Below the pieces are notes generated by a model, which was not told where the DNA came from, did not search any database, and worked only from the letters and a program-made list of their open reading frames with translations. From positions 48,703 through 112,702 of the forward strand of contig JBGAFR010000002.1 in the NCBI GenBank assembly GCA_044227145.1: a DNA stretch of 64,000 nt, read 5' to 3'. This stretch comes from Lysobacteraceae bacterium (GTDB lineage Bacteria; Pseudomonadota; Gammaproteobacteria; Xanthomonadales; Xanthomonadaceae). Positions 23,282 to 62,095 of the stretch are shown here, piece by piece. Position 1 is the stretch's first letter; each line of letters opens with the position of its first letter. The translations under genes and the position numbers were made by a program.

Positions 23282-24004
23282 ATGGCGACACTCAAACGCA
23301 TCCTGGAAGCGGCGCGGCTGATCGAGTCGGCCGACGCGCCGCCACCCGTGCCCGCGGACGACGGCGACATCGACGCGATCATCCGGCGCGCGGCGGCGGC
23401 CGAGTCGCGCGGCGCACGTGCGCCCGAGCAGGCGCCCGCACCCGCGCAGGCGCAGGCCGTCGAGGCCGAGCCCGCGGCGACGGCGCTGGCCGGCGTCGAG
23501 GAAGGCCTGGCCTTCCCCGACATCTACGCCCGCCAGGGCCTGGCCGAGGCCGCGTTCCCGGTCGAACGGCTGCAGAAGCTGGTCGACGGCCTGCGCACCC
23601 TGGACCCGACCACCCGCCGCGCCGCGATCACCGCGATGGACGTCGCCGACGAGACCTGGTCGATGGACCAGGTGCTGGCCGATGCCGATGCCAAGATCGA
23701 CGCGCTCCGCGGCCACCAGCGCCACCTGCAGGCCGGCGCCGACGCGCTGGTCCAGCACAACCGCGAGCGCATCGCCGAACTGGAGAGCGGCCGCGACACC
23801 CGTGTCGCCGAGCTGCGCCGGCAGATCGCCGCGCTCGAGGCGCAGGTGCAGGACGCGATCGGCGCCACCGCCGCGGACGTCGCCCGCCTGCAGTCGGAAT
23901 CCGAATCGAACAAGGCCGCGCTGCAGCGCGAGACCCAGCGCCTCGACACGCAGGTCGCCGGCCTGCAGGACCTCGTCGCCCAGTTCCGGGCGCCGGCGGC
24001 ATGA
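23282..24004 (+). CDS. Hypothetical coiled-coil protein, first gene of the PspA/ABC/AAA operon
   Basis: Host-like codon usage; helical C-terminal half with heptad character. Confidence 0.7.
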   Translation: MATLKRILEAARLIESADAPPPVPADDGDIDAIIRRAAAAESRGARAPEQAPAPAQAQAVEAEPAATALAGVEEGLAFPDIYARQGLAEAAFPVERLQKLVDGLRTLDPTTRRAAITAMDVADETWSMDQVLADADAKIDALRGHQRHLQAGADALVQHNRERIAELESGRDTRVAELRRQIAALEAQVQDAIGATAADVARLQSESESNKAALQRETQRLDTQVAGLQDLVAQFRAPAA

Positions 24005-24100
24005 CCCGGCGACGCCCCGTTTCCCGTTTTTCCTCTTTCGCGTGCGCGTCGATCCCGCAGGGTCGCGCATACCGCATCCCCTTCGCGTAAGGAGCCTGCC

Positions 24101-25768
24101 ATGGCCGTCAAACTCACCCCCTTCGCCAAGCTGCTGATCGGCGCCATCGTCATCGTCGGCAGCGGGTCGGTGCTGTGGAACCTCTACAAGAACCGCCAGG
24201 CCGGCGACGACACGCCTGCCGCCGCCACCCAGGGCGCCGGCAAGACCGCCACCGCCGGCAGCTATGCCGGCAGCGGCAAGGGCGACGGCGCGCTCGGTTC
24301 GGCCGGCAATCCGCTGAAGGTCAGCATCGTCAGCTTCCACGGCTACGCGCCCGCGCTGGTCGCCAACGGCAACAGCCTGACCACCAAGGCCGGCTCGCTG
24401 TACGACAAGGAAGGCCTGAACGTCGAGTTCGTGATCCAGGACGACATTCCGGCGATCGCCACCGTGTTCGAGTCGAACACCGCGCAGTGCGTGTGGCGCA
24501 CCTCGGACTTCTGGGCGCAGGAGCAGCCGAACCTGCGCAACAGCGGCCACGACGGCCGCGCGGTGATGATCGTCGACAACACCCGCGGCGCCGACGCGAT
24601 CATCGCCAAGGACCCGTCGATCCGCACCGTCGAGGACCTCGCCGGCAAGAAGGTCGCGCTGCTGCAGTTCACGCCGTCGCACGGCATGACCATCGACGCG
24701 ATCGACAACTCCTCGCTGTCGGCGCGCAGGAAGCAGAGCATCGAGTACGTCTTCATCAACGCCGAGGACGGCCTGGCCGGCGTGCGCGCCGCGCTGGAAT
24801 CCGGCAGCGTCGACGCCGCCGTGTTGTGGGATCCGGACCTGTCGCTGGCGCTGCGCGCGACCAAGGGCCATGTCGTGTATTCCACCCGCACTGCTTCCAA
24901 CCTGATATTCGACGTGATCGTCTGCGACAAACGCGTGCTCGACGACGCGCAGGGCGCCGCCGCCGTGCAGAAGCTGGTCAACGGCTGGATGAAGGGCGTC
25001 GACGCGGCCAAGGCCAATCCCGACAACGCCGTCGACGCGCTGGTCAACACCGAGGAGTTCTTCACCCTGCTGGCCAAGGACGAAGGCAAGCCGTTCGTGA
25101 AGGGCCTGTTCGACAACCTGCTGTGGACCGGCGTCGGCGACAACGCGCGCATCCTCGGCATGAGCGGCGGCACCAACCACTACGCCCGCGTCTACCAGCG
25201 CTTCGACCAGATCTACCGCGCCGCCGGCGCGCTGGCGAATCCGAAGTCGCCGGTGATCAATCCCTCCGACAGCTTCGACACCCGCTTCATCCGCACCCTG
25301 TACGACGCCAGCACCCAGGCGCAGGCCGAGGCGCAGAAGACCGAGACCTTCACCGCCCAGGCCCGCGAGCAGGCGGTGCAGGCGGCGCCGGCCGAAGTCA
25401 CCAAGCCGGTGGTCGTGAACTTCGCCAGCGGCCAGTCGGCGCTGACCAAGCGCGCCGAGAAGACCATCGACACCGACATGGTGCCGTTCATCGAGAACAA
25501 CGGCAGCGCCTACTTCGAGATCAGCGGCAACACCGACAGCACCGGCAGCGCCGCGGTCAACGATCGCCTGTCCGAGGCGCGGGCGCGCGCCGTGGTCGAC
25601 TACCTCGTGCAGCAGTGGGAGTTCCCGCGCGAGCGCTTCAAGATCGTCGGCAACGGCTCCAGCCGTCCGCTGTGCAACGAAGGCGCGCCGGAAGCCGAAG
25701 GCCTGAGCCTCGACGCCTGCCGCGAAGCCAACCGCTCCACGCGCATCGCCGTGTTCGGCGCGCGCTGA
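24101..25768 (+). CDS. SsuA/NMT1-like substrate-binding protein fused to a C-terminal OmpA-like peptidoglycan-binding domain
   Basis: N-terminal TM anchor; periplasmic binding fold (IRTVEDLAGKKVAL, DAAVLWDP); OmpA motif ISGNTDSTGSAAVNDRLSEARARAVVDYL...NRSTRI. Confidence 0.8.
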   Translation: MAVKLTPFAKLLIGAIVIVGSGSVLWNLYKNRQAGDDTPAAATQGAGKTATAGSYAGSGKGDGALGSAGNPLKVSIVSFHGYAPALVANGNSLTTKAGSLYDKEGLNVEFVIQDDIPAIATVFESNTAQCVWRTSDFWAQEQPNLRNSGHDGRAVMIVDNTRGADAIIAKDPSIRTVEDLAGKKVALLQFTPSHGMTIDAIDNSSLSARRKQSIEYVFINAEDGLAGVRAALESGSVDAAVLWDPDLSLALRATKGHVVYSTRTASNLIFDVIVCDKRVLDDAQGAAAVQKLVNGWMKGVDAAKANPDNAVDALVNTEEFFTLLAKDEGKPFVKGLFDNLLWTGVGDNARILGMSGGTNHYARVYQRFDQIYRAAGALANPKSPVINPSDSFDTRFIRTLYDASTQAQAEAQKTETFTAQAREQAVQAAPAEVTKPVVVNFASGQSALTKRAEKTIDTDMVPFIENNGSAYFEISGNTDSTGSAAVNDRLSEARARAVVDYLVQQWEFPRERFKIVGNGSSRPLCNEGAPEAEGLSLDACREANRSTRIAVFGAR

Positions 25769-25787
25769 GGCACGGGCGACGCACGGC

Positions 25788-26585
25788 ATGAACAGCGCCT
25801 GGAACCCCTACGCCTCACTCCCCGGTGCGCAACGGCGACGCCTCGGCATCGCCGGGGTCGCCGTCGTGCTGCTGCTCTGGGCGGCGCTGTCCGGCAGCGG
25901 CTGGATCAGCCCGAACAAGCTGCCGTCGCCGTGGGCGGTGGCGCGCGCGTTCGCCTACCTCGCCTGGCACGACGGCAAGAGCCTGCTGTTCGACGCCACG
26001 CTGTGGTCGGTCGGTCGCGTCGCGGCCGCCGGCGTGCTGGTGGTGCTGCTGGGCGTGCCGCTGGGCATCCTGATGGGCGCCTCGCCGAAGTTGAACGCGG
26101 TGCTGTCGCCGCTGATCGACCCGTTCCGCTCGGCGCCGGTGGTGGCGCTGCTGCCCATCCTGGTGATGTGGCTGGGCATCGGCGAGTCGATGAAGATCGC
26201 GTTCCTGTTCCTCGGCGCGGTGGTCTACCTCGTGCCGATGGTGCGCGACGCGCTGCAGGCGGTGCCGCAGAGCTACTGGATCGGCGCCCGTGACCTCGGC
26301 GCCTCGCCGTGGGAATGCATCCGCCATGCGGTGGTGCCGATCGCTATGCCGCGCATCGCCGACGCGATCATCGTCAGCGTGTCGGTGATGTGGACCTACA
26401 TCACCGTCGCCGAATACGTGAACGCCAAGGTCGGGCTCGGCCAGCTGATCCAGAACGCCCGCCGCTTCAGCGCGATGGACCAGGTGTTCGCCGGCATCTT
26501 CGTGATCATCGCGCTGGCGCTGGTGACCTACCAGACGATGCGCACGGTCAAGCGCCACCTGTATCCGTGGGAGACCCAGGCATGA
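25788..26585 (+). CDS. ABC transporter permease (SsuC/TauC type)
   Basis: Multiple TM helices; EAA-like loop ARDLGASPWECIRHAVVP; AEYVNAKVGLG. Confidence 0.85.
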   Translation: MNSAWNPYASLPGAQRRRLGIAGVAVVLLLWAALSGSGWISPNKLPSPWAVARAFAYLAWHDGKSLLFDATLWSVGRVAAAGVLVVLLGVPLGILMGASPKLNAVLSPLIDPFRSAPVVALLPILVMWLGIGESMKIAFLFLGAVVYLVPMVRDALQAVPQSYWIGARDLGASPWECIRHAVVPIAMPRIADAIIVSVSVMWTYITVAEYVNAKVGLGQLIQNARRFSAMDQVFAGIFVIIALALVTYQTMRTVKRHLYPWETQA

Positions 26586-27421
26586 CCGCGACCGCAGACG
26601 TCACGCCGGCGGTCATCGCACTCGACCGGATCGTGCAGGAGTTCCCGCGCCCCGAGGGCGGCACCAACCGGGTCATCGACGACCTCAACCTGCGCTTCAC
26701 CGGCCCCAGCATCAACATGCTGCTGGGCCCTTCCGGCTGCGGCAAGAGCACGCTGCTGTACATGATGGGCGGCGTGCGCCCGCACAACCAGGTCATGCCC
26801 ACCAGCGGCACGATCAGCATCGACGGCAAGCCCTGCACCGATGCGCACGACGATGCGGTGATGGTGTTCCAGCGCTACGCCAACCGGCCGGACCTCACCG
26901 TTTACGACAACGTCGCCTTCCCGTTCCGGCTGAAGCTGTGGCGCGACCGCGTCCCGGCCGCGCAGCGCGACGGGCTGGTGATGCACATGCTCGAATCGGT
27001 GGGCCTGGCCGACAAGGCGAAGCTACGGCCGAGCCAGCTTTCCGGCGGGCAGAACCAGCGCATCGCGCTGGCCCGCGCGCTGATGCTCAAGCCGCGCATC
27101 CTGCTGATGGACGAACCGTTCGGCGCGCTCGATGCGCAGACCCGCGAAGAGATGCAGAAGCTGCTGGTGAAGCTCTACCGGGAACACCCGTGCCTGATCG
27201 TGTTCGTCACCCACGACGTCACCGAGGCGCTGCTGCTGGGCGACCGGGTGGTCGTGCTGTCGACGCAGCCGGCGCGGATCGCCGACGATTTCGAGATCGC
27301 CGCGCCCCAGCCGCGCGACAGCGGCTGGCTGCGCATGCCCGAGGCCGCCGCGCTGGAGCAGCGCATCCTCAGCCGCCTGCACCAGGCGGCAGGCAAGGGC
27401 AACATGCGGGTGACGATCTGA
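26582..27421 (+). CDS. ABC transporter ATP-binding protein (SsuB/TauB type)
   Basis: GPSGCGKST, LSGGQNQR, LLMDEPFGALD, FVTHD; ATGA overlap with the permease stop. Confidence 0.92.
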   Translation: MTATADVTPAVIALDRIVQEFPRPEGGTNRVIDDLNLRFTGPSINMLLGPSGCGKSTLLYMMGGVRPHNQVMPTSGTISIDGKPCTDAHDDAVMVFQRYANRPDLTVYDNVAFPFRLKLWRDRVPAAQRDGLVMHMLESVGLADKAKLRPSQLSGGQNQRIALARALMLKPRILLMDEPFGALDAQTREEMQKLLVKLYREHPCLIVFVTHDVTEALLLGDRVVVLSTQPARIADDFEIAAPQPRDSGWLRMPEAAALEQRILSRLHQAAGKGNMRVTI

Positions 27422-27425
27422 ACCG

Positions 27426-28322
27426 ATGAATGCGTCGCCGAAGCCCGTCAGCTATCTCCGCGCCTGGCTGACCAGCCAGACCAACCTCACCGCCGTGCTC
27501 GGCGGCGGCCTGGCGGCGGCCGTGGCGTCGATTCCCGCGGGCGCCGCGGGCGCGCTCGGCGCGCTGGTGGTGCTGGGCGCGGCGCAGGTGCTGGCGGCGC
27601 TGGTGGTGCCGGACCTGCCGACCTTCCGCAGTCGGATCGACCGCCAGACCCGGCGTGCGGCCATCGACCAGCGCCGCGGCCAGCTGCAGCAGGAGCTGTT
27701 CCAGGTCTACGGCGGCATGCAGCGGGTGATGGGCATGCCGATGTGGCAGAAGTACCGCGTCATCGTCGAGCGTTCCGAAGTGCTGTACCGCATCGCCGGC
27801 GAGGAGGCCAGCCAGCTGTCGTACGACGACGCCGAGCGCGTCGACAAGGCCTCGGTCGATTTCCTCGCGCTGTGGCTGGCGCAGGTGACGATCCAGGAGC
27901 GTCTGCGCAGCGGCGAGGAGGCCACGCTCGACCGTCGCCTGCGCGAGGCCGAGCGCGCGCTGTCCGACGTCGAGGAAAGCGACCCGCGCTACCGCCTCCT
28001 GAAGATGGCCCGCGACGACTACGCGGCGATCAAGCTGCGCCACGACCGCCTGGTCGCGCGCCGCATGTCGATCGACGCCGCGCTGGTGTCGCTCCCCGAC
28101 CAGGTCGAGGAGGTCTACCAGCTCGTCGTCGCCAGCCCCTATTCCACGACCCTCGGGTCCAAGCTCGGCGAGTCGCTGTCGCGGCTGCAGCTGGAAGAGG
28201 ACATCGAGATGGAACTGTCGCAGAACGACCTCGACAGCCACTACTTCAAGACTCACGCCGCATCCGCAGCGCAGCAGGCCCAGGCGAAATCCGCCGGGCA
28301 GGCCGCGGGCGGCGCGCGCTGA
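27426..28322 (+). CDS. Hypothetical membrane-anchored helical protein
   Basis: Two N-terminal hydrophobic helices followed by long amphipathic coiled coils. Confidence 0.7.
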
Positions 28323-28349
28323 CCGCACCTTCTTCCCCAGGAGACCTCC

Positions 28350-29048
28350 ATGAACCTCTTCAGCCGACTGGCCAACCTCGTGCGCGGCTTCCTCTCGCTC
28401 TTCGTCACCGGCCTGGAGCAGCAGCATCCGGAGATCGCGTACGAGAACGCGATCAACACGATGATCGAGAAGTACAACAAGCTCAAGAACGCCACCGCCG
28501 GCCTGATCCGCCTGCGCGAGGACGCCGCCGACCGCCTGCAGAAGGCGCAGCGGCAGCAGGCCGAACTGAGCGCGATGCTCGAACAGGCGATGGCGACCGG
28601 CCAGGACGACCTCGCGGTCGAGCTGATCGAGCGCAAGGACGCCGTCGATGCCGACATCACGTCGCTGCAGGGCGAGCTCGAAGGCGCCCAGAAGGACGTG
28701 GAGACCGCCAAGAACGCGCTGACCGAGGTCAAGGGCGAGATCACCAAGCTCAAGGCCGAGAAGGACCGCATGCTCGCCAAGATGCAGAGCGCCCAGGCCC
28801 GCACCCGCATCAACGACCAGCTCGAAGGGCTGTCGGTGGACGCCGAACTGCGCGCGCTGGAGAACGTCCGCACCGGCATCAAGGACACCATCGCCAAGGC
28901 CAAGCTCGGCGACGAACTGCGCGAGTCGGATCTCGACACCCGCCTCAACGCGCTGAAGGCCAGCAGCAGCAAGGCCACCGCGCGCGCCAAGCTAGAAGCG
29001 CTGAAGAAGGAGCGCGCCGGGCAGGGTGCGGGCGATCGCACGATCTGA
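28350..29048 (+). CDS. PspA/IM30 (ESCRT-III-like) family protein
   Basis: [15 protein letters not shown] amphipathic N-helix, (E)HPE..YENAI, 232-aa coiled coil and C-terminal LDTRL..LK. Confidence 0.8.
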
Positions 29049-29176
29049 CCTGCGCCGATGGGAAATCCTCTCCGCGAAGGAGAGGCAGCGAAAGACGCGA
29101 AGCCCCTCGGACGCGCAGTTCCTCACGCAGGGCCGTCGCGAACGCTCGACACGTTCGCTCGGCCGGGATCGAGACC

Positions 29177-30997
29177 ATGACCACCCTCAACGGCACTTCG
29201 ACGCAGCCCTCCGACCTTCCGCGCTGGGCCGACGAGCTCAAGCGCCGCTACCTCGCCGGCGAGGCCGGGCTGTTCCTGCTCCACGGCAACGTCCACGACG
29301 GCGTGCCGCACGAGGGCCGACTGCTGCCGTTCGCGGACTACCTGCAGGACGTGGTGCTGTCGGCGAAGCCGCAGCGCTACGAGCTCGCGCTGCGCCACGC
29401 CGGCCTCAAGCGTCGCGGCGAGGGGACCAAGCCGATCGAACACGGCGAATCGCTGCTGTCGGACATGGCGGCGCTCGAGCTGCGCCTGCGCACGGGCGAC
29501 GGCATCGCGCTGGTGCTGCCGCATGCCGGCGACCTCGTGCCGAACGCCGACACCACGTTCCTGAGCACCGACGAGCGCGGCCTGCTGGAGATCTTCCACG
29601 ACTGGTCGCTGGGCGGCCTGCTGTTGCAGCGCAACCACATCGTCGTGCTGCTGTGCGCGTCGCTGGCGGAGCTGCATCCGTCGCTCAACACCAATCCGCG
29701 CATCGCGGCGATCGAAATACCGCTGCCCGACGAGGCCGCGCGCGCGCAGCTGGTTGCGCAGTCGGCGCCGCACATGCCGGCCGATCGGCAGGCGCTGGTC
29801 GCCAAGCACACCGCCGGCCTGCGCCTGCTGGAGATCGACGGCATCGTCGCCGAGCGTCCCGACGCCGGCCTGCCAGAAGCCGAGCGCAAGGCGCTGGCGC
29901 TGCAACTGCTCGGCGACGCGCCCGACGCGGCGAAGCGCGCAGAGGCCTACGCCGGTGTCACCGCCGGCAAGTCGCGCGAGGAAATCGCGTTCCTGATCCT
30001 CGGCCACGACGCGCCGCAGACCGGCGAAGACCCGGTGAGCGCGATGCTCGCGGTCATCGGCCAGCGCAAGCGGGAGATCATCCAGCGCTCCTGCGGCGAG
30101 CTGATCGAATTCCTCGATCCGACCTACGGCCTCGACGCGGTCGGCGGCTACGACCAGATCAAGGCCGAGCTGATGAAGATCGCGGCGCTGATCCGCAGCG
30201 GCGACGGCCGGCTCGCGCCGATGGGCCTGCTCGCGGTCGGGCCGATGGGCGTCGGCAAGACCTTCGTCATCAAGGCCTTCCTCAAGGAAGCCGGGCTGCC
30301 GGGCGTGGTGCTGAAGAACTTCCGCTCGAAGTGGGTGGGTTCGACCGAATCCAACCTGGAGCGCGTGCTGAAGATCATCCGCGCGATGAGTCCGATCGCG
30401 CTGGTCATCGACGAAGGCGACCGCAGCTTCGGCAACGGCGAGGGCGGCGAGACCGATGGCGGCACGTCGTCGCGCGTCATCGCCCGGCTCAAGGACTTCA
30501 TGTCCGACCCGGACAACCGCGGCCACGTGCTGACGATCCTGATGACCAATCGCCCGGACAAGCTCGACGTCGACATCAAGCGCCCGGGGCGGCTCGACCG
30601 CAAGATCCCGTTCTTCTACGCCGACACCGCGACCGATCGCCTGCGCATCGTCCAGGCGATCCTCAAACGCAACGGCGCGGCGCTGCCGGACGCGGACGCG
30701 ACGGCATTGACCGAGGCGCTGGAAGGCCTCGACGGCTATTCCAACGCCGACCTCGAAGCCATCGCGCTGCTCGCGCTCGACAACGCCCGCAACGACGGCG
30801 CGTCGTTCGCGCTGTCGCATCTGCAGCAGGCGATCGGCGATTTCATCCCGCCGCAGCACGTCGACACCATCCAGCTGATGGAGCTGCTGGCGGTGCAGGA
30901 ATCCTCGCGTCGCAGCCTGCTGCCGGAGCGCTTCGCGAAGCTGGCGCCGGCGGAAGTCTCGACCCTGATCGCGGAGCTGAAGCGGCGCATCCGCTGA
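29177..30997 (+). CDS. Classical-clade AAA ATPase (CDC48/Vps4/Ycf46-like) with a degenerate N-terminal domain
   Basis: Walker A GPMGVGKT, FRSKWVGSTE pore loop, Walker B LVIDEGD, and SRH MTNRPDKLD...KRPGRLD. Confidence 0.88.
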   Translation: MTTLNGTSTQPSDLPRWADELKRRYLAGEAGLFLLHGNVHDGVPHEGRLLPFADYLQDVVLSAKPQRYELALRHAGLKRRGEGTKPIEHGESLLSDMAALELRLRTGDGIALVLPHAGDLVPNADTTFLSTDERGLLEIFHDWSLGGLLLQRNHIVVLLCASLAELHPSLNTNPRIAAIEIPLPDEAARAQLVAQSAPHMPADRQALVAKHTAGLRLLEIDGIVAERPDAGLPEAERKALALQLLGDAPDAAKRAEAYAGVTAGKSREEIAFLILGHDAPQTGEDPVSAMLAVIGQRKREIIQRSCGELIEFLDPTYGLDAVGGYDQIKAELMKIAALIRSGDGRLAPMGLLAVGPMGVGKTFVIKAFLKEAGLPGVVLKNFRSKWVGSTESNLERVLKIIRAMSPIALVIDEGDRSFGNGEGGETDGGTSSRVIARLKDFMSDPDNRGHVLTILMTNRPDKLDVDIKRPGRLDRKIPFFYADTATDRLRIVQAILKRNGAALPDADATALTEALEGLDGYSNADLEAIALLALDNARNDGASFALSHLQQAIGDFIPPQHVDTIQLMELLAVQESSRRSLLPERFAKLAPAEVSTLIAELKRRIR

Positions 30998-53241: not shown

Positions 53242-53712
53242 GTGGCCGATTTGAAGAACGTGTTTATCAGTCACGTCCATGAAGATGATTCTGGATTGCA
53301 GAAGCTGAAGGATCTGCTCGCGACGAAGGGGATGACCATTCGCGATGCATCGATCCATACGGGTAAGTTCAACAACGCCAAGGATCCGGACTACATCAAG
53401 TCCGGCATCCTTGCGCCACTGATCAAGTGGGCCGGAACTTTCATTTGTTACGTATCGCCGTTGACTAAGAACAGCGAATGGGTCAACTGGGAGATCGAGT
53501 ACGCCGCGAAGCAGGGCATGCGCATCATCGGCGTCTGGCAGCAAGGCGACAAAGGCTGCGAACTCCCGGATGCGTTGAAGGAGTACGCCGACGCCGTTGT
53601 GGGATGGAATGGCGATTCGATCATTGATGCCATCAATGGCAGGGACAGCTGTGAGATGCCCGATGGAAGTCCGTGGTCACCTGTCCCGCTCAAGAGGCAC
53701 CCCTGCGGGTGA
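53242..53712 (+). CDS. TIR-domain protein (DUF1863/ThsB-like), TIR1
   Basis: VFISH, SEWVNWEIEYA (catalytic Glu) and IIGV; GGAGG ribosome-binding site before GTG 53242. Confidence 0.85.
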   Translation: MADLKNVFISHVHEDDSGLQKLKDLLATKGMTIRDASIHTGKFNNAKDPDYIKSGILAPLIKWAGTFICYVSPLTKNSEWVNWEIEYAAKQGMRIIGVWQQGDKGCELPDALKEYADAVVGWNGDSIIDAINGRDSCEMPDGSPWSPVPLKRHPCG

Positions 53713-54332
53713 GACTCTACTCATACGTTGTTCGGTACGACAGCGGATTTGCGCCCAATCCGTTCTATGGATGGTGCACCCTAGCCACCTGCAAACCCAA
53801 GATTCGCAAATCGGCGCAGGTCGGCGATTGGATTGTCGGCACGGGCAGTGACGACAAAAAAGTTCGACGCGGGAAACACCTCGTCTATGCCATGCACGTC
53901 ACCGAGATACTGACGTTCAACGAATACGATAACGACCCACGCTTTGGATCAAAGAAGCCATATCGCACGGGCAGTCGTAAGCAGAGCTGCGGCGACAACA
54001 TCTACTTTCGGAATGCGAAGAATACGCAATGGTGTCAGCGCGACTCCTTTCATTCAAATGCCGACGGCACGCGACGCTCCGATCATGTTGCCCGCGACAC
54101 GGGCGTGAACCGGGTGCTATTGAGCGATGATTTCGTCTATTTTGGCGGCAGCGGGCCACGTATCCCAGAGAGGCTGATAGCCACCAATGGCCACTCTCTT
54201 TTTAAGAAAGGTCCAGGCTACTGTGTATTTGACGACCCGCAGTTTATCGCACAAGTGGAAAAGTGGGTCGCATCGCTTGGCGATCCTGGCTACCAGGGTG
54301 CCCCATTCGAATGGATATCGCTTCGTGAATAA
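53709..54332 (+). CDS. Nmad2 (nucleotide-modification-associated domain 2) protein
   Basis: LYSYVVRYDSGFAPNPFYGWCTLATCKPKIR...GDWIVG, GDNIY, VLLSDDFVYFG; GTGA overlap with TIR1. Confidence 0.75.
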   Translation: MRLYSYVVRYDSGFAPNPFYGWCTLATCKPKIRKSAQVGDWIVGTGSDDKKVRRGKHLVYAMHVTEILTFNEYDNDPRFGSKKPYRTGSRKQSCGDNIYFRNAKNTQWCQRDSFHSNADGTRRSDHVARDTGVNRVLLSDDFVYFGGSGPRIPERLIATNGHSLFKKGPGYCVFDDPQFIAQVEKWVASLGDPGYQGAPFEWISLRE

Positions 54333-55464
54333 GCCATCGATTACAAACGGTTCCATCCTGCTGTCGGACTATGCATCGCAGATCGTGCCGACCGATGTGC
54401 TCGATGCAATAGACTTGCGGCCGGTGCAACACGGTCTTTTTGGCGAGGTGGGCGGCATCATGTCAACGGCCAAGAAGCATATCCGGGACAAGAAGGGGTT
54501 TCCGGAATACCGCCGGGCTGCGGAAGAAGAGTTTGGCGACACGCTCTGGTATTTGGCCGCGTTGTGTCGTCGTTGCGGCATTGGATTGGATGCTGTCTTC
54601 GAGCAAGCGGTGGGTGACGGGAAATATGCAACGGCACTGGCTGCGAGTGATCTTGCAACGGGATCCATTGCCACGGTGGTGGTTCCGGTGACATCGCCCG
54701 AGCTGGATGCGACGCTTGCATCGCTGGGGGTGGCGACCGCAAAACTGATGCAGGGCCAGCCCTCGATGTCCGCATTAGTCAGCTTCGCAAGGCACTACCT
54801 TGATGCGCTTCATGCGACGGGGCTGACGTTTTCGAACGTCGTCCAAGCGAACTTGCGGAAGGCGCGCAGCGCATTCTTGGAACCAGAAATCGCTGACCTC
54901 ATCAACTTCGATGCTGAATTCAAAGAAGAAGAGCAGCTACCCCCTGTTTTTCGTATTCGAATCGACCAGCGGTCCAGCGGCAAAAGCTATCTTAAGTGGA
55001 ACGGCGTCTTCATCGGCGACCCTTTGACTGATAACATCGCTGATCCCGATGGCTACCGGTTTCACGACGTGTTTCATCTCGCAAATGCCGCTATTCTTCA
55101 CTGGTCACCGGTGTTCAGAGCACTTATCAAGCACAAGCGAAAAAGTAACCAGAAGTATGACGAAGAGCAGGATAGTGGCCGGGCAATCGTTGTCGAAGAA
55201 GGGCTGACGGCTTGGTTGTTTTCTCGTGCCAAGGCTTTGGATTACTTTGAGGGTCATGATCGCGTATCGTTGGGCATCCTCAAAACGGTCCAGGAATTTG
55301 TTGCTGGGTACGAGGTTGAGCGGTGCCCGATGAAGCTGTGGGAACGATCCATTCTTCAAGGGTATGACGTCTTTCGTCAGGTGCGTGAAGCGAAGGGCGG
55401 GTTTGTGATCGGTGATCGAAAAGCCAGGACTCTGCAATACGAACCACTGGAGGGCAAAGCATGA
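54325..55464 (+). CDS. MazG-like nucleotide pyrophosphohydrolase with a MazG_C domain
   Basis: GLFGEVG and EEEFGDTLWYLA acidic motifs; C-terminal DGYRFHDVFH...RKS...DSGRAIVVEEG. Confidence 0.8.
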   Translation: MNKPSITNGSILLSDYASQIVPTDVLDAIDLRPVQHGLFGEVGGIMSTAKKHIRDKKGFPEYRRAAEEEFGDTLWYLAALCRRCGIGLDAVFEQAVGDGKYATALAASDLATGSIATVVVPVTSPELDATLASLGVATAKLMQGQPSMSALVSFARHYLDALHATGLTFSNVVQANLRKARSAFLEPEIADLINFDAEFKEEEQLPPVFRIRIDQRSSGKSYLKWNGVFIGDPLTDNIADPDGYRFHDVFHLANAAILHWSPVFRALIKHKRKSNQKYDEEQDSGRAIVVEEGLTAWLFSRAKALDYFEGHDRVSLGILKTVQEFVAGYEVERCPMKLWERSILQGYDVFRQVREAKGGFVIGDRKARTLQYEPLEGKA

Positions 55465-56147
55465 GCGTTCATCCTTTCGTCAAGGCAGTATCGTCTCTGC
55501 GCTTTGAAAATGCATTTAACCCTTACTCTGATCGCTGCGAAGTGCATGATCGCCAGGACGCACCACAGCGCCGTGCGAAGGCATTGTCTGCGGTCGTCTC
55601 GAAGGCGACGGAGACAGCCGTTGATGCGGTGTGGATCGGTCGTGACCTTGGATACCGCGGTGGGCGACGGACGGGTCTTGCACTGACCGATGACGTACAC
55701 GTTTCTCGGCATGCAGAGCGCTGGAATGTGCGCGCAGAACGGCAGACGGTGGGAGAAGCCGTCTCCGAACGAACGGCTGCGGTGATATGGGGCATGCTCG
55801 ATCAGATCGATGAGCCCATATTTCTCTGGAATGTGTTTCCTTTGCACCCCCACGAAGCCGGATCACCGTTTACGAATCGTCAGCATAATGTGCGCGAGCG
55901 CCAAGCTGGAGAGGAAATCCTGAGCTTGTTGTTGGACTTGCTGAGGCCGCGCCGTGTCCTCGCAGTGGGCAACGATGCGTTTGGTGCCGCGGCGCGGGTC
56001 GCCAGCCAGTGCGCAGTGACGCTGGTTCGGCACCCCAGCTACGGAGGGCAACGTCAGTTTGAACGTCAGGTGGCAGATCTTTATGACTTGCGTGGACGCA
56101 ACGGCTCGTTCGCGTTCCCATGTCAAGAAGAAATGGCGCACGCCTAA
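55461..56147 (+). CDS. Uracil-DNA glycosylase superfamily protein
   Basis: FNPY, IGRDLGYRGGRRTGLALTD motif A, LWNVFPLHPH..NR, and VRHPSYGG motif B; ATGA overlap with MazG. Confidence 0.8.
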   Translation: MSVHPFVKAVSSLRFENAFNPYSDRCEVHDRQDAPQRRAKALSAVVSKATETAVDAVWIGRDLGYRGGRRTGLALTDDVHVSRHAERWNVRAERQTVGEAVSERTAAVIWGMLDQIDEPIFLWNVFPLHPHEAGSPFTNRQHNVRERQAGEEILSLLLDLLRPRRVLAVGNDAFGAAARVASQCAVTLVRHPSYGGQRQFERQVADLYDLRGRNGSFAFPCQEEMAHA

Positions 56148-56216
56148 CTAAGTGTGAGGTCGGTCGGTCTGCTGGTAACGGTGGCGTGCTAGCGAAATTA
56201 ATTGACTGGAATCAAT

Positions 56217-56798
56217 ATGGCGTTACTTTCAGAGGCGATGGTAAGGCAAGCGGCCGCACGCACTAAGGTTGTTGCTTCGATGGAAAGTGCAAGTGAAATC
56301 TTGCGTGAAGCACGGAAAACAACCCGAAGCAGCTTTGACATTTTCTTGTCCCACTCGAAGCTAGATAGCGACTTGGTCTTAGGAGTCAAATCTGTTCTCG
56401 AATCTATCGGGAAAACAGTCTACGTTGATTGGATTGATGATCCTCTGTTGGATCGTAGCAACGTAACGCCGAAGACTGCCGAAAAGCTTCGCATGCGTAT
56501 GCGTCAGTGCAAATCTCTTTTCTATGCGCATTCTGAAAATGCAACCACTTCGCGATGGATGCCGTGGGAAATCGGATATTTTGACGGCTTCAATTCAAAC
56601 GTGGCGATCTTGCCGATTTCCCGCAGCGAAAATCAGACCACCTTCGCTGGGGTTGAATATCTGGGCTTGTATCCGTATGTCGATGTAACCGGGCGTACCG
56701 TGTCTTCGGCAGGAACTCTCTATTTGCACCGTAATGCAGGCGACTACGCGGGGTTTGATCGGTGGGTCTTGTCGACAGACAAACTGCGCCCGCTCTAA
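56217..56798 (+). CDS. TIR-domain protein, TIR2
   Basis: FDIFLSHS, VYVDWIDD and SRWMPWEIGYFDG (catalytic Glu). Confidence 0.85.
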   Translation: MALLSEAMVRQAAARTKVVASMESASEILREARKTTRSSFDIFLSHSKLDSDLVLGVKSVLESIGKTVYVDWIDDPLLDRSNVTPKTAEKLRMRMRQCKSLFYAHSENATTSRWMPWEIGYFDGFNSNVAILPISRSENQTTFAGVEYLGLYPYVDVTGRTVSSAGTLYLHRNAGDYAGFDRWVLSTDKLRPL

Positions 56799-56834
56799 TG
56801 GCTTGACGAATTACTTACCTAGTGAGGTTGTGAT

Positions 56835-57974
56835 ATGGCCCTCTACGAGATAGCGGTGCTCGGAGATCCGACTGAAGAGCAATTGGACCTGTTGACGGAC
56901 GGATTGAAGACGGCAGCAAACGACTTTCAGCTTACATACGGAACAGACCTTCTCCTTCACATAAATCCGCACAAATTTGAGCCGGGGGATAGGTCGGCTG
57001 CCGTGGCCGTCTTCTTTGGTAGTCCCGATGTAGTGGCGACAGACCTTCAGGTGCATTTCGATACTTCCAGAATTCCTGTCTTACCTGTTGCATCAAGCGA
57101 GAAGCGCGTGGGGGCGGAGATTCCAGAGTCGCTGAAGACGATCAACTGCCTGCTTTACGACAAAGCGAGTGCGCAACTTGTGCCTGCCATATTGAGTAGT
57201 TTGGGGCTCATGTTGCGGACGCGCAGAGTTTTTTTAAGCTACAGAAGAACGGAGTCAACGCCAGCCGCAGTTCAGCTATTCGGCGAAATATCTGCGAGAC
57301 GTTTTGACGTGTTCCTCGATACGCATAGCGTGAACGTCGCGGAAGAATTCCAAGATGAATTGTGGCACCAGCTATGCGATTCGGATGTGCTCGTGTTGTT
57401 GCAGACGCCAGGATACTTTGAAAGTCGCTGGACAATGGCCGAGTGGGGCAGGGCTCTCTCAAAAGGAGTTGGCATACTCAGTGTCGATTGGCCTGATTCC
57501 ACGCCTTCGATCCATACAGGAACGGCGAGCCGCGTGGAGTTGATACGCTCGGAAATCAATGCAGATGGCACTTTGGCGGCATCGGCAGTGGAGAGAATCT
57601 GTCACCAGATTGAGAAAGTGAGAATTACAAGCCAAGCGGTAAGACACATCTCACTAATCACTTCTGTCCAGGATGCGGTTACCAAAATTGGCGGAAGACT
57701 TCTTCGCATCAGCGCGAATCGAACACTTCACGTAACGCTGGCTACAGGGCGAAAGATTGCAGTGCAGCCAAGAATAGGTGTGCCAACTTCCCTAACAGCC
57801 CAAGAGGCGCTCGATAGGGCTCAAGGAGACCATGCGGCGGTTGTGTACGATCATTTAGGGATTCGTCCGAACTGGCAAAAGCATCTACGTTGGCTAGGGG
57901 AGCATGTTCCATCGGCAAGATGGGTTAAAGCGAGTGAAGCGGGCTGGACATTCGCAGGATGGGAGACTCCATGA
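56835..57974 (+). CDS. Multidomain TIR protein, TIR3
   Basis: Central RVFLSYRR...DVFLD...DSDVLVLL..FESRWTMAEW, with uncharacterised N- and C-terminal alpha/beta domains. Confidence 0.8.
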   Translation: MALYEIAVLGDPTEEQLDLLTDGLKTAANDFQLTYGTDLLLHINPHKFEPGDRSAAVAVFFGSPDVVATDLQVHFDTSRIPVLPVASSEKRVGAEIPESLKTINCLLYDKASAQLVPAILSSLGLMLRTRRVFLSYRRTESTPAAVQLFGEISARRFDVFLDTHSVNVAEEFQDELWHQLCDSDVLVLLQTPGYFESRWTMAEWGRALSKGVGILSVDWPDSTPSIHTGTASRVELIRSEINADGTLAASAVERICHQIEKVRITSQAVRHISLITSVQDAVTKIGGRLLRISANRTLHVTLATGRKIAVQPRIGVPTSLTAQEALDRAQGDHAAVVYDHLGIRPNWQKHLRWLGEHVPSARWVKASEAGWTFAGWETP

Positions 57975-58585
57975 GCGCCATTTTTCTATCAGCAAGCATC
58001 CCTGTTGCAGGGCGTGGCACCTACTATGAGGATGCTGATCCTTTCCTCATACAGTTCGCGGTGAGGGAACTCCTTGTCGTTGCATTAGGAAGGCGTCCGA
58101 TTGTGTGGGGTGGGCATCCTGCTATCACGCCTATGGTGTGGAGCGTGTGCGAAGACCTAGGTGTTCAGTATGCGCAATCCGTGCTGCTCTTCCAGAGCAA
58201 ACTCTTTCAGGACTTCTTCCCACAAGAGAACGAACGTTTTGCAAATGTTCGTTATGTCGATGCAGTCCAAGATGATCGAGAGAGAAGCCTTCAATCTATG
58301 CGGAAAAGCATGATGGAGGGTGAGTTTGAGGCGGGTGTTTTTATTGGCGGCATGAATGGGGTTGAAGAGGAGTGCGATCTCTTCATGCAGTTGCACCCTC
58401 GCGCCAAGATCATTGCGCTCGGCTCTCCTGGTGGTGCTGCAAAGCGGATCGCCAAGAAACGCGATGAGGACATTGAACGAATAGACTACCTACGCCTATT
58501 TGCAGAGCGCCTTGAAATAGATACAACCGAGCCGCGAAATTCACGTGTTTTTGAGAACGATCATATCGCTAGGCCAAGCTTCTAA
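57971..58585 (+). CDS. Stand-alone SLOG-domain protein
   Basis: IFLSASIP, IVWGGHPAIT, SLQSMR, GVFIGGMNGVEEE and GSPGGAA; ATGA overlap with TIR3. Confidence 0.8.
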   Translation: MSAIFLSASIPVAGRGTYYEDADPFLIQFAVRELLVVALGRRPIVWGGHPAITPMVWSVCEDLGVQYAQSVLLFQSKLFQDFFPQENERFANVRYVDAVQDDRERSLQSMRKSMMEGEFEAGVFIGGMNGVEEECDLFMQLHPRAKIIALGSPGGAAKRIAKKRDEDIERIDYLRLFAERLEIDTTEPRNSRVFENDHIARPSF

Positions 58586-58628
58586 TGTCTCAAATAAAAG
58601 GGTCAGGGCAATTTTCGTCAAGACTTCT

Positions 58629-59108
58629 TCATGCTGCCCTTGTCGGAGTCGCCCTCTCCCCGCGCCGATAACCGATGGCTTCCGCAACGTGCGGGCCGAG
58701 GATATCGGCACTTCCGGCGAGGTCGGCGATGGTGCGGGCCACGCGGAGGATTCGGTGCATCGAACGCGCCGAGAGTTGCAGCAGGTCGATCGCGTTCTCC
58801 AGCATGGATTGATCATCGGGCGCGAGCCGGCACACCGCGTTCGTTTCGGATTGATCCAGATGCGCGTTGCAGCGGCCGGCGCGTTGTCGCTGCACTTCGC
58901 GCGCACGGACGACGCGGGTGCGGACGACGTCGCTGGATTCGCCCGCGGGTGCGTCGGGGCGCAGTTCGGCGGGCGACAGTCGCGGCACGTCGAGATGCAG
59001 GTCGATGCGTTCGAGCAGCGGCCCGGAGATCTTGCCGCGATAGCGTGCGATCGCTTCGGGATGGCAGCGGCAGCGGCCGGACGGATCGCCGGCCCAGCCG
59101 CAGGGGCA
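58629..59108 (-). pseudogene. comM: Displaced 3' fragment of comM/yifB, copy 2
   Basis: CPCGWAGD...ISGPLLERIDL...EAIGYR; same 480-bp length as copy 1 with synonymous divergence. Confidence 0.9.
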
Positions 59109-59577
59109 TAGAGGCGTTGCCTTTTTGCCATACGTGAGGATTCGGCGTAAGTCGCTGATTCAGAAAGCATGGGACTTCGAGCCGAAGAGCTTGGGCGACC
59201 ACATCCGCCGTCGCCGGCTCATGCTCGCCATCACCCAAGAGGAGGCGGCGCAGCGCCTCGGCGTGAACGCCTGGACGGTTCACAATTGGGAGACGGGGCA
59301 GAGGAAGCCCGAGATTCGGTTCATCCCTGCCCTTGTCGCATTCCTCGGCTATGACCCGGAGCCGGTCGATGAGGGGACGCTCGCCGGTCGGCTGGTCGCT
59401 AGGCGGCGTCAGCTTGGCCTCTCTCAGCGCGAGGCAGCCCGTTCCCTCCAGATCGACCCCGGCACATGGGCTGGGTGGGAGCTTGGGGCCAGTATCGCTA
59501 GGGAAGCCCACAGGAGGGCGGTGGAGGGGTTCTTAGAGAACCCCGGCACAGCTTCGCAACTTGCTCAAGGTCGCGGC
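58629..59577. repeat. Direct repeat copy 2 (comM 3' fragment + double-HTH gene)
   Basis: Colinear with 52120-53068. Confidence 0.9.
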
Positions 59578-59583
59578 CGATGA
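59125..59583 (+). CDS. Tandem XRE helix-turn-helix protein, copy 2
   Basis: Near-identical paralog of 52616-53059; the TAG stop is replaced by CAA, extending the ORF by 5 codons. Confidence 0.75.
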   Translation: MPYVRIRRKSLIQKAWDFEPKSLGDHIRRRRLMLAITQEEAAQRLGVNAWTVHNWETGQRKPEIRFIPALVAFLGYDPEPVDEGTLAGRLVARRRQLGLSQREAARSLQIDPGTWAGWELGASIAREAHRRAVEGFLENPGTASQLAQGRGR

Positions 59584-59784
59584 TGGTGCGGAGCGGCGTC
59601 CCGGTGGACGCTTCGGCCGTGCTGCCGGGGTGGAGACAGGATGCCTCGGGCGCATGCCGGGGGCTATCAGGGAAAGCCGGTATCGGGGGTAGGGGTTTTC
59701 TGACGCGACCCGTCACAAGCTCGCACGGTCGGCTCGGTGATGGGCTCGGACTTATGAAAGCTAGGAAAGGCGCCGTTAGGTCAC

Positions 59785-59812
59785 AAAAGACGACGCCCAC
59801 CGGAGTGGGCGT
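59785..59812 (-). terminator. Intrinsic terminator after the YjzC-like gene
   Basis: Stem ACGCCCAC-CGGA-GTGGGCGT, followed on the minus strand by CTTTT. Confidence 0.6.
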
Positions 59813-59839
59813 GCCCTCTTCCCTGACGTAGCCACGACC

Positions 59840-60010
59840 TCAGGCGTACTGGGTCAAGACCCAGGTAACCGCCTGACCGTTGTAGGGCGGCATGCGGTTG
59901 CCCTTCGCGATCGGAGCGGTCGTGTTGTAGCCACTCGGCTTCCAGACGCCACTCTCCGGGCAGGTTTCGCCCGTGCGGGCAGTCGTTCCAATCGGCTTGC
60001 GGGTACTCAT
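59840..60010 (-). CDS. YjzC-like small protein (56 aa)
   Basis: MSTRKPIGTTARTGETCPESGVW...APIAKGNRMPPY..VTWVL pattern; followed by a terminator. Confidence 0.65.
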   Translation of the reverse strand: MSTRKPIGTTARTGETCPESGVWKPSGYNTTAPIAKGNRMPPYNGQAVTWVLTQYA

Positions 60011-60059
60011 AGATACAATCCTCAGCCAAGCCCGCCGGGAGTATTCCCGACGACTAAAG

Positions 60060-60101
60060 CTTGACGGAAGCGACAATAACATAATTGTCGACTCCGTCAA
60101 G
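60060..60101. promoter_or_regulatory. Palindromic operator overlapping divergent -35 boxes
   Basis: CTTGACGGAAGCGACAAT-AACATA-ATTGTCGACTCCGTCAAG (16/18 inverted match); TTGACG on both strands. Confidence 0.7.
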
Positions 60102-60136
60102 TATGCTTTGACAACGACCAGACCAAGGGGCCGGCA

Positions 60137-60469
60137 ATGGCATCAGACTTTCCCTCCCGCCTAAAGGCGACCCGTGAGCTACGTGAACTAACCCAGGGAG
60201 ACTTAAGCAAGCTTGCAGGTCTACCAGCGACCACGATCTCTCACTTCGAGAGTGGTTCTCGAAAGCCATCGTTTGATAACCTGAGGCGGCTGGCTAAGGC
60301 GTTAAGTGTCAGCACTGATTACTTAATGGGTATCACTGATACACCCGATGCAACCACCGCCGCTACGCGGATAGCAAGACATCTCCCAAATGCCACTGAA
60401 GACGAGATATCGATGCTAGAAGCTGTAGCAAAATCACTAGCTGATAGGAGACCGCCAAGCGATGGATAG
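60137..60469 (+). CDS. XRE-family HTH repressor
   Basis: RLKATRELRELTQGDLSKLAGLPATTISHFESGSRKPSFDNLRRLAKAL. Confidence 0.9.
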   Translation: MASDFPSRLKATRELRELTQGDLSKLAGLPATTISHFESGSRKPSFDNLRRLAKALSVSTDYLMGITDTPDATTAATRIARHLPNATEDEISMLEAVAKSLADRRPPSDG

Positions 60470-61322
60470 TTTGCGGCGTCGAACGATTGAGGCAAAAGCA
60501 GAAGAGCTTTTGCATGATGCAGGGATAGCAGCTTTACCAGTCAAGCCGCAACAATTGGCCGAACATCTTGGCATTCAAGTACACGCTAAGCCTGCTTCGA
60601 TCAAGGGTGCCTCCGGTTGGTTGGTTCGATCCGGGGACGAGTTCGCAATCATCTACGCTACATATATCGATAGCATCGGCTTTCAACACTTCAGCATAGC
60701 CCACGAGTTGGGCCATTACATGCTGGATGGTCATCCCGAGCATGTGTTCCGCAATGGTGGCGAGCATGCGTCGCATGCTGGTTTCGAAGCAGCGGATCAC
60801 ATTGAGCGAGAAGCCGATCACTTCGCAGCATGCCTGCTCATGCCGAAGGAGTTGTGCCGATCTCTGATTGGCCGCAGTCGCGACGGATTAGAGGCAGTTC
60901 TCCATATTGCCAATCAATGCGAAACGTCATTGACCGCCGCTGCGCTCCGCTATGCAGAGATTGGGCAGCTTCCAGTCGGCATCGTCCAAGCTTACCAAGG
61001 CAAAGTCGAATTCTGTGCGGCCTACCCTATGCAAGCGCATGTTGGTTGGGCTAGACCGCTTCTGCGCAATGCAAAAGTCCCCGTTGACAGTGCAACGAGT
61101 CGCCTGTCTCAAGACCAGGAAGCGATTCTGCGAGGCGGTGAAGATAGCGACAGCAGTCAAGCGAGCGATTGGTTTCCAGGAGCAGATTCTAAAGCCGGGC
61201 TCATAGAGGAAGTGATCGGTCTCGGCAAGTTCGGTCGGACGCTGACCATTCTCACTCTCGATCCGGACGCAGCAGGCACGGATGAAGATGATGATGGTTG
61301 GGAAGAGCCACGCTTTCGCTAG
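60462..61322 (+). CDS. ImmA/IrrE (CapP-like) zinc metallopeptidase
   Basis: FSIAHELGHY HEXXH motif, EREADHFAACLLMP and ETSLTAAALRY; overlaps the XRE stop. Confidence 0.88.
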   Translation: MDSLRRRTIEAKAEELLHDAGIAALPVKPQQLAEHLGIQVHAKPASIKGASGWLVRSGDEFAIIYATYIDSIGFQHFSIAHELGHYMLDGHPEHVFRNGGEHASHAGFEAADHIEREADHFAACLLMPKELCRSLIGRSRDGLEAVLHIANQCETSLTAAALRYAEIGQLPVGIVQAYQGKVEFCAAYPMQAHVGWARPLLRNAKVPVDSATSRLSQDQEAILRGGEDSDSSQASDWFPGADSKAGLIEEVIGLGKFGRTLTILTLDPDAAGTDEDDDGWEEPRFR

Positions 61323-61339
61323 CGAGATTTGAGACTGAC

Positions 61340-62095
61340 ATGGCGGCCTTACCATATCTAATCGCATATCTCGGAGCAGGGTTCTTGCTCGCGTGCGGAT
61401 TTTTAATGAACAACAAGATTTCTTGGCCGAAGAAATTTCTGGTGGCCGGAATTATGATGGTCTTTTGGCCGCTATTTGCATTTGCGGTGCCGGAATCATT
61501 TTTCAAGCCAAGCAAGGAAGAGGCAGCGGCCAGAAACGGAGATCGGCTAACAATAGAGCTAACAAAGCTCTTGCAAGGAGAGTCTGACGGCCTATCTCAG
61601 GTCTTGGGAGAAAAAGTCGCTCGTGTAGCGAAAGGGGGCGATAAAGCAGTTACTTACTTCGGTGTCCCAGGTAGCTTAGATGATGTGCTAGAGGCATTCT
61701 GGGATGAAAATATCCCACCATCGATATACATCAGTCTGCTTTGGGCGCGGGATGAGCTAAAAGAACATGAGCCTCACGATGGGCCGCTTTTCAGTCGCCG
61801 TCCACCTGATTGGTACGTGGGATTTTCACACGAATTTCTCAAGTGCATAGCAAAAGCTGATGGCAAGTTAAGGGGGCGCATACTGGATGCAATCGGCAAG
61901 ATATCTGAGGCTCCTATGGAAGCCGTAGGCGATACTGTCAAGCCGCTTACCAGCAATCTGTCTGGGCTCTGGCGCTATCGAATAGGTGATGATCGTCTTG
62001 TGTATTTCCCGGATCACGAAGAAAAGAAGATCACGTTGATCTTTTTTGGGGCTCGGGGCGATGTGTATAAAAAGGTGTCGCCGCTAGACTCATGA
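61340..62095 (+). CDS. Membrane-anchored protein with a C-terminal RelE/ParE toxin domain
   Basis: Two N-terminal TM helices; C-terminal WYVGFSHEFLK...RILDAI...KPLTSNLSGLWRYRIGDDRLVY...GARGDVY. Confidence 0.7.
   Translation: MAALPYLIAYLGAGFLLACGFLMNNKISWPKKFLVAGIMMVFWPLFAFAVPESFFKPSKEEAAARNGDRLTIELTKLLQGESDGLSQVLGEKVARVAKGGDKAVTYFGVPGSLDDVLEAFWDENIPPSIYISLLWARDELKEHEPHDGPLFSRRPPDWYVGFSHEFLKCIAKADGKLRGRILDAIGKISEAPMEAVGDTVKPLTSNLSGLWRYRIGDDRLVYFPDHEEKKITLIFFGARGDVYKKVSPLDS

Follow-up and report, generated by a model that had tools for sequence, protein, structure and literature searches.

ESCRT-III is disassembled by Vps4, and the Vps4 type of ESCRT-III recognition is defined by the MIT domain. 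A bacterial gene arrangement likened to this pair has been described by comparative genomics (Ravi et al. 2024; mSystems, PMC11237479, section 18 and Table S3; preprint 2020): bacterial PspA is occasionally encoded with a protein carrying two AAA+ domains, the N-terminal one inactive, and an ATP-dependent membrane remodelling comparable to that of Snf7/Vps4 and tied to solute transport was suggested. According to the same work, the PspA–AAA dyad recurs alone in Firmicutes and Actinobacteria, and the transmembrane (TM) protein of the operon is a divergent Snf7 (PMC11237479). Here we analyse an operon of this type at positions 23282–30997 of a 64,000-nucleotide stretch of contig JBGAFR010000002.1 (assembly GCA_044227145.1, Lysobacteraceae bacterium), the whole of which we call the window. 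Because both the operon type and the functional inference were published in 2024, we are dealing with a Lysobacteraceae member of a predicted, uncharacterised system and not with a new kind of system. An earlier reading of this DNA, made without database searches (the sequence-only reading), knew of no functional study of the architecture; our literature searches found none either, but the novelty that it assumed does not extend to the operon type or to the inference, both already in Ravi et al. (PMC11237479). We give an about even chance to the view that the genes constitute a chromosomal envelope-stress and membrane-maintenance operon, with a PspA–AAA core and an accessory layer formed by the other five genes.

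The operon consists of seven tightly spaced genes (g1 to g7), all on the + strand, and their content was observed directly: a coiled-coil protein (g1), an OmpA-fused solute-binding protein (g2), the permease (g3) and ATPase (g4) of an ATP-binding cassette (ABC) importer, a TM-hairpin helical protein (g5), PspA/IM30 (g6) and an apparently tandem AAA protein (g7). The open reading frames (ORFs) and the Pfam and NCBIfam assignments agree with the seven co-oriented genes recognized by the sequence-only reading. From g1 to g7, the intergenic gaps measure 96, 19, −4, 4, 27, and 128 bp, the g3 stop codon and the g4 start overlapping as ATGA, and a terminator scan found no + strand terminator-like site within 23282–30997. 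By its layout and distribution, the locus is a strongly conserved chromosomal operon of seven genes. Going by the published description, it resembles the operon of Ravi et al. (PMC11237479; example OGG56892.1, Candidatus Handelsmanbacteria) in having PspA, an AAA protein that appears to be a tandem whose N-terminal copy is inactive, an ATPase and a permease of the ABC type, an OmpA-fused solute-binding protein and a TM-anchored helical protein, with the same order of binding protein, permease, ATPase, and TM protein in the middle block. It differs in that PspA sits between the TM protein and the AAA gene, and in that the first gene encodes a coiled-coil protein without detectable PspA similarity; moreover, an additional gene, for a TerB protein and unmentioned in PMC11237479, is present in most of the relatives outside Lysobacteraceae.

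To assess conservation, one genome per species (185,579 species) was scanned with an alignment of the N-terminal (D1) domain of g7, which yielded 146 relatives; the best 80 loci were taken, and all their ORFs were compared with g1–g7 by phmmer. Fifty-nine loci, those in which 6.8 kb or more of sequence precedes the AAA gene, were informative, and the order g1-g2-g3-g4-g5-g6-g7 was found in 55 of them, distributed over three proteobacterial classes. The linkage is thus far beyond chance, and gene order, on whose conservation the sequence-only reading had made its interpretation depend, is kept. Two of the four remaining loci belong to Propionivibrio and have g1 relocated to the end of the cluster (g1 lies behind the AAA gene, yet still within the cluster, in L043 and L067, so that it stays linked even where it has moved), one has a split g7, and one (L003) has only g6 and g7. 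Carriers were found in Lysobacteraceae, in Betaproteobacteria (Rhodocyclales/Burkholderiales among them; Accumulibacter, Propionivibrio, Undibacterium, Tepidiphilus, Sulfuritalea, and others), in Desulfuromonadales/Geobacteraceae (Geobacter, Trichlorobacter, and others), and in other Gammaproteobacteria (Methylococcaceae, Salinisphaerales, and Panacagrimonas, which we take to belong to the family Nevskiaceae). According to the record titles, they include the isolate genomes of Lysobacter hankyongensis JCM 18204, Lysobacter brunescens CCUG 55585, Panacagrimonas perspica DSM 26377, and several Undibacterium isolates. Contig L036, whose label reads "MAG: Chitinophaga pinensis" (MAG, metagenome-assembled genome), bears a Lysobacteraceae-type operon whose AAA D1 is 76% identical to that of the window, and is probably mis-binned.

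The L003 locus shows which part of the operon can stand alone. It is syntenic with the window, with about 91% nucleotide identity on both sides, and lacks exactly the stretch corresponding to window positions 23314–28336 (g1–g5); at the junction (L003 9040–9220), the diverged first ~30 bases of g1 are followed by ~100 bp of unrelated sequence and then by the ribosome-binding site and start of g6, the PspA and AAA genes being intact. The existence of this PspA–AAA pair without g1–g5 is an observation, and it implies that the pair is a separable core and that g1–g5 form a module whose genes can all disappear together. As L003 is derived from a MAG, the gap might be an assembly artefact, but we consider this less likely than a natural deletion. 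In two short Lysobacteraceae MAG contigs (L005 1–742 and L006 1–696), the sequence upstream of the AAA gene resembles neither PspA nor any part of the window, and no convincing ORF was seen in L005, the one of the two for which ORFs were listed; this mismatch may reflect a rearrangement or an assembly break.

The product of g6 (28350–29048; 232 residues) is, by all the similarity searches, a bona fide PspA/IM30 of the ESCRT-III superfamily. It matches Pfam PspA_IM30 (PF04012) over its full length with 74.5 bits against a cut-off of 33.9 (residues 2–222 on model positions 1–218 of 220), and its residues 1–213 match the solved PspA/Vipp1 structures 8qbw, 6zvr, and 7o3w with E-values of about 2e−9. 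The N-terminal amphipathic helix (alpha0) is present, the conservation profile shows a conserved Ala/Gln-rich C-terminal tail, and identity across classes reaches 54–58%, as compared with 46–52% for the AAA protein.

The AAA protein (g7, 29177–30997; 606 residues) appears to be a tandem protein in which a catalytically dead AAA-like D1 (residues 1–310, 29177–30106) precedes an intact D2 (30107–30997). The active-type D2 matches the Pfam AAA family (PF00004, residues 352–479) with 82 bits and contains a Walker A (GPMGVGKT, 354–361), an aromatic pore loop (KWVG, 384–387), a Walker B (VIDEGD, 410–415), a sensor-1 (TNRPD) and arginine fingers (RPGRLDRK, 469–476). These catalytic motifs are intact by direct observation and, together with the pore loop, are conserved in at least 98% of 76 aligned sequences (the g7 of the window and 75 orthologs). 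D1, on the other hand, is highly conserved but has neither a Walker A (LHGNVHD at the corresponding place) nor the acidic pair of Walker B (LVLPHAGD). As a single sequence it matches no AAA family in Pfam at E ≤ 1, and an hhalign comparison of D1 with D2 was not significant (E = 0.35), only the Walker-B strand being aligned; as a profile, it finds several classical AAA proteins, though weakly (E = 8e−4 to 0.1), over the lid and the final part of the large subdomain. These weak matches agree with the label "inactive classical AAA" given to the N-terminal copy by Ravi et al. 2024 (PMC11237479). The intact classical AAA of the sequence-only reading therefore holds for D2, whose motifs are complete, but g7 is not a single-domain protein, its first 310 residues forming a separate, catalytically dead and apparently AAA-like domain.

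Which AAA proteins D2 resembles bears on the function of the pair. Its best matches in the PDB are the D2 of Cdc48/p97, AFG2/SPATA5, NVL, and Rix7 (E-values down to 2e−41), no Vps4 is named among the 60 best, and the scores against curated models decrease from CDC48 (80 bits) to PAN (63), FtsH (58), and CdvC (35). Given these scores and best solved relatives, D2 can be placed in the classical AAA clade but outside the Vps4 group, closest to the D2 of Cdc48/p97. As a Vps4/CdvC protein, g7 was rejected on its 310-residue N-terminus, degenerate and apparently AAA-like, on the absence of a detectable MIT domain and on its 35 bits against a cut-off of 650 in the CdvC model NF041006. As a Cdc48/p97/VAT protein it was rejected too, with 80 bits in TIGR01243 against a cut-off of 802, a degenerate D1, and no double-psi barrel N-domain detected. 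The Vps4-like AAA of the sequence-only reading thus does not survive the comparison with Cdc48/p97 D2, AFG2, NVL, and Rix7, all of which are nearer, and because the protein is not a Vps4 relative, "Vps4-like" can denote an analogy of function only. This placement, with D2 near Cdc48/p97 D2, AFG2, NVL, PAN, and FtsH and not close to Vps4/CdvC, together with the missing MIT domain and the fact that two membrane proteins (g3 and g5) and the membrane-anchored g2 are encoded alongside the AAA, would also fit a membrane-protein quality control in which the AAA, like Cdc48, Msp1, or a protease-less FtsH, extracts damaged or stalled membrane proteins (g5, the permease), PspA being a partner that seals lesions and not the substrate. 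We regard this explanation as unlikely, as the PspA–AAA pair persists in L003 though every linked membrane protein is lost, and as the dyad stands alone in Firmicutes and Actinobacteria (Ravi et al. 2024, PMC11237479).

Compared with ESCRT-III and Vps4/CdvC, the operon is alike in that a gene for an ESCRT-III-superfamily polymer adjoins one for a classical-clade AAA with an aromatic pore loop and arginine fingers. It is unlike them in that g7 lacks MIT and no MIM motif could be identified, in that g7 appears to be a tandem of a dead D1 and a D2 nearer to that of Cdc48, in that ESCRT-I- or ESCRT-II-like genes are absent from the operon, and in that its ABC importer and peptidoglycan anchor have no ESCRT counterpart. 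With the canonical phage-shock system PspF-PspABC of Enterobacteria and LiaIH of Bacillus, it shares a PspA effector and an adjacent small membrane protein that could recruit PspA in the manner of PspB/C or LiaI. It differs from them by the lack of PspF (an NtrC-type AAA+ enhancer-binding protein), PspB, and PspC, and by an AAA that is a classical-clade unfoldase and not a transcription activator. As the sequence-only reading had it, pspF, pspB, and pspC were found neither among the seven genes nor among the flanking genes tested (the rest of the window was not scanned for them).

A further possible partner of the core is encoded in most lineages. Among the loci outside Lysobacteraceae with room after the AAA gene (L040–L080), 37 of 40 have a gene for a TerB-domain protein (PF05099, 33 bits, ~150 residues; for example, L040 11862–12311) directly after it, in Betaproteobacteria, in Desulfuromonadales/Geobacter-type loci and in non-Lysobacteraceae Gammaproteobacteria. 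No such gene follows the AAA in the window or in any Lysobacteraceae locus surveyed.

Genes g2 to g4 encode a complete NitT/TauT-type ABC importer, their Pfam scores (26.6, 92, and 95 bits, respectively) all exceeding the cut-offs and so placing them in this type. The binding protein (g2, 24101–25768; 555 residues) combines, according to Pfam, NCBIfam, and PDB matches, an N-terminal hydrophobic TM anchor (residues ~8–27), an NMT1/SsuA-like binding domain (residues 74–316, 24320–25048; Pfam NMT1; weak match to SsuA in the PDB) and an OmpA-like domain (residues 441–531, 25421–25693; PF00691, 56 bits against a cut-off of 27.2). In the PDB, its C-terminal domain matches that of OprF (E = 3e−9) as well as that of OmpA, and the peptidoglycan-binding motif GNTDSTGSAAVNDRLSEARA (pattern NTD...N..LS..RA) can be read in it; g2 is thus likely a membrane-anchored solute-binding protein, with a predicted peptidoglycan tether provided by the OmpA-like domain. 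The permease (g3, 25788–26585; 265 residues; TauC-like) is a member of BPD_transp_1, and the ATPase (g4, 26582–27421; 279 residues; ABC_tran) has its Walker A, LSGGQ, Walker B, and H-loop all intact in the translation. The ABC proteins are the best conserved components of the operon, with 63–76% identity across classes.

The module shares with SsuABC, TauABC, and NrtABC the permease fold (BPD_transp_1), the ATPase family and the NMT1/SsuA-like binding domain, but g2 differs by its N-terminal TM anchor and C-terminal OmpA domain, and linked ssuDE, tauD, or nitrate-assimilation genes are absent from the operon. As equivalogs of these three importers, g2–g4 were rejected, every curated NCBIfam score being below its cut-off: g2 reaches 72.7 bits in SsuA_fam (cut-off 163.5), g3 141.8 bits in TauC (342) and 78 in SsuC (347), and g4 182 bits in ntrCD (291.8) and 178 in SsuB (395). 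Furthermore, no assimilation or utilization enzyme is linked to the module in any lineage surveyed or in the window flanks. These results speak against an ordinary sulfonate or nitrate importer, an outcome that would have undermined the sequence-only reading. Its suggestion that the module moves lipid is made unlikely by established knowledge of ABC folds, the permease fold being that of a type-I BPD_transp_1 importer.

The same data allow us to weigh the possibility that two functions are merely co-regulated, an ordinary NitT/TauT importer (for organosulfur, nitrogen, or an osmoprotectant, for instance) being expressed under the same condition as a PspA stress pair without any physical coupling. 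None of the canonical motifs expected of a working type-I transporter is missing from the importer, the core pair of L003 stands genetically without it, and unrelated insertions are tolerated, between g5 and g6 in Undibacterium (a 285-residue protein without Pfam family, L046 8270–9127) and between g6 and g7 in a Lysobacter subclade (a 237-residue protein with a signal-peptide-like N-terminus, L016 9248–9961). Yet the order is kept in 55 of 59 loci over three classes, the unusual fusion of TM anchor, solute-binding protein, and OmpA domain is maintained at 63–66% identity, the sulfonate, taurine, and nitrate curated models all score below cut-off, utilization enzymes are linked in no lineage surveyed, and g5 and g1, for which no transport role is apparent, always lie within the same block. 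Simple co-regulation therefore seems to us improbable.

The two remaining proteins, g5 and g1, belong to no Pfam family and are the least conserved of the operon across classes (33–41% identity). The N-terminal hydrophobic hairpin of g5 (27426–28322; 298 residues) spans residues ~20–61 (27483–27608) and is flanked by basic residues on both sides, which implies that the following helical domain of ~230 residues, ending with a conserved acidic helix, should face the cytoplasm. The protein defines a family of its own (~209 clusters at 50% identity), and its AlphaFold2 model is all helical with moderate confidence (predicted local distance difference test, pLDDT, 70). Our tests did not reproduce the divergent Snf7 reading of the TM protein proposed by Ravi et al. 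2024 (PMC11237479). When 92 members were searched against Pfam at E ≤ 1, neither Snf7 nor PspA_IM30 was among the 25 families listed of the 181 matched; the family profile had no ESCRT-III match among PDB sequences at E ≤ 10; against the PspA family of the operon itself, hhalign returned a probability of 5%; and the AlphaFold2 model (pLDDT 70) had no ESCRT-III match in the Foldseek top 50. A relationship of g5 to Snf7 or PspA was thus undetectable in four tests, a remote homology between such long helical proteins still being possible. Some g5 homologs bear the JGI name "ABC-type transporter Mla MlaB component", with no supporting domain match.

The cytoplasmic g1 product (23282–24004; 240 residues) has a conserved amphipathic helix at its N-terminus and further comprises a disordered linker rich in Pro and Ala, a helical domain that is small and conserved (consensus FP.E.LL.L.DGLR..D..TR.AA..AMD.AD..W) and a single helix of ~108 residues; its AlphaFold2 model (pLDDT 73) shows the 108-residue helix with small helices, and Foldseek returned no fold match. 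As a divergent PspA/Snf7 it was rejected, with an hhalign probability of 0.3% and a modelled shape and Foldseek search that were also negative. Orthologs of g1 were found in 64 loci, operon-linked in every one.

The genomic setting bears on whether the operon is a mobile or defensive element. Upstream lie genes for an M16 peptidase, a pseudouridine synthase, DUF2059, ArfB, and an acyltransferase (housekeeping functions), and downstream OEP and SDR genes, a convergent RND outer-membrane factor gene ending 26 bp past g7. The window has a GC content of ~70%, and that of the operon is the same as in the adjoining chromosome. The closest named relatives of the window are Lysobacteraceae, and a contig of the MAG "Proteobacteria bacterium OH_PDB_150" is 96% identical to it over 14.9 kb; near-identical DNA is present in bioreactor, sludge, and biofilm metagenomes (DNA runs only). 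An anti-phage or abortive-infection system that senses envelope injury might be evoked by weak PADLOC similarities (the OmpA part of ZorB, E = 2e−5; the IetA AAA, E = 3e−8), by the fact that PspA was first identified as a phage-induced protein, and by a separate defence-like island ~23 kb downstream in the window. However, the PADLOC matches are generic (OmpA, ABC, AAA, and coiled-coil regions) and no system-specific model fits, the operon lies in conserved synteny among housekeeping genes with the GC content of its surroundings, and no copy was found on plasmids or phages, which makes this explanation very improbable.

The island itself (53673–62095, + strand) has a GC content of 0.52–0.56, against ~0.70 in the rest of the window, and encodes Nmad2, MazG_C, a UDG-like protein, two TIR-domain proteins, a SLOG cluster-3 protein, an IrrE/M78 peptidase, and a YoeB-like toxin-domain protein; its appearance is that of a nucleotide-modification or conflict (defence) island gained by horizontal transfer. 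As to expression signals, the promoter and terminator scan of this ~70% GC DNA gave nothing informative, and RNA structure in the g1–g2 spacer was not significant (z = −0.4). The 128-bp spacer between g6 and g7 (29049–29176) contains, soon after the PspA stop codon, a 7-bp GC-rich hairpin (CCUCUCC...GGAGAGG) with no U-tract, the fold of the spacer not being statistically unusual (z = −1.5); the hairpin might lower AAA expression relative to that of PspA.

How, then, would the envelope-stress operon work? The tandem AAA would form a hexamer, most likely through the dead D1 ring, and D2, by means of its aromatic pore loops, would take up and thread subunits of PspA or the flexible tails of these, possibly beginning at the conserved Ala/Gln-rich C-terminal tail of g6, and so pull them from polymers; the outcome would be an ATP-driven disassembly, recycling, or remodelling of PspA assemblies at the inner membrane. 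To this core mechanism, a D1-ring hexamer whose D2 loops extract PspA, we attach a confidence close to the midpoint of the scale. Around it, g5 may recruit or nucleate PspA at the membrane, g1 may be an adaptor that bridges components, and g2 would be fixed between the inner membrane, by its N-terminal anchor, and the peptidoglycan, by its OmpA-like domain; the importer may bring in a small solute or report the state of the periplasm or cell wall to the cytoplasmic machinery, and TerB would be a further membrane-stress input in most lineages. Here we infer all the protein–protein interactions, the substrate of the AAA and the transported ligand, the conserved gene linkage being directly observed.

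The proposal is favored by the presence of a gene for TerB, a membrane-stress domain, beside the AAA, and by the retention of g1 in the cluster even when it has moved. Several points weigh against it: the link between the AAA and PspA is one of gene context; the AAA lacks an MIT domain; L003 keeps the PspA–AAA pair without g1–g5, so that the core can do without the ABC module; and within the tests run, g5 and g1 gave no evidence of ESCRT-III likeness. PspA/Vipp1 polymers, moreover, reportedly have other controls, among them Hsp70 and nucleotide hydrolysis by the polymers themselves, and a 2025 review states that a Vps4-like ATPase appears absent from bacteria. On the other hand, the inference of Ravi et al. 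2024 was reached independently of ours. From the sequence-only interpretation as a whole, the composition and conservation of the operon stand, while Vps4 kinship had to be given up, lipid transport is unlikely, and the novelty was overstated.

A more ambitious scenario, which we consider possible but doubtful, is that the operon encodes an independently assembled bacterial functional counterpart of ESCRT-III/Vps4, in which AAA-driven cycles of PspA polymers would be physically coupled, via g5 and g1, to an importer clamped between membrane and peptidoglycan, mostly with the addition of a TerB sensor. If true, this would be an envelope-spanning machine that detects damage to the wall or periplasm and repairs or reshapes the membrane. 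To the published operon type, the present survey adds the tight linkage of the genes, the natural "core only" variant L003, the TerB partner, and isolate genomes that carry the operon. On the assembly, remodelling, and recycling of PspA/Vipp1 polymers in bacteria, this operon family allows one to ask directly whether some species employ a dedicated AAA unfoldase; it likewise allows one to examine how the repair of the membrane could be connected with the cell wall and with the transport of solutes.

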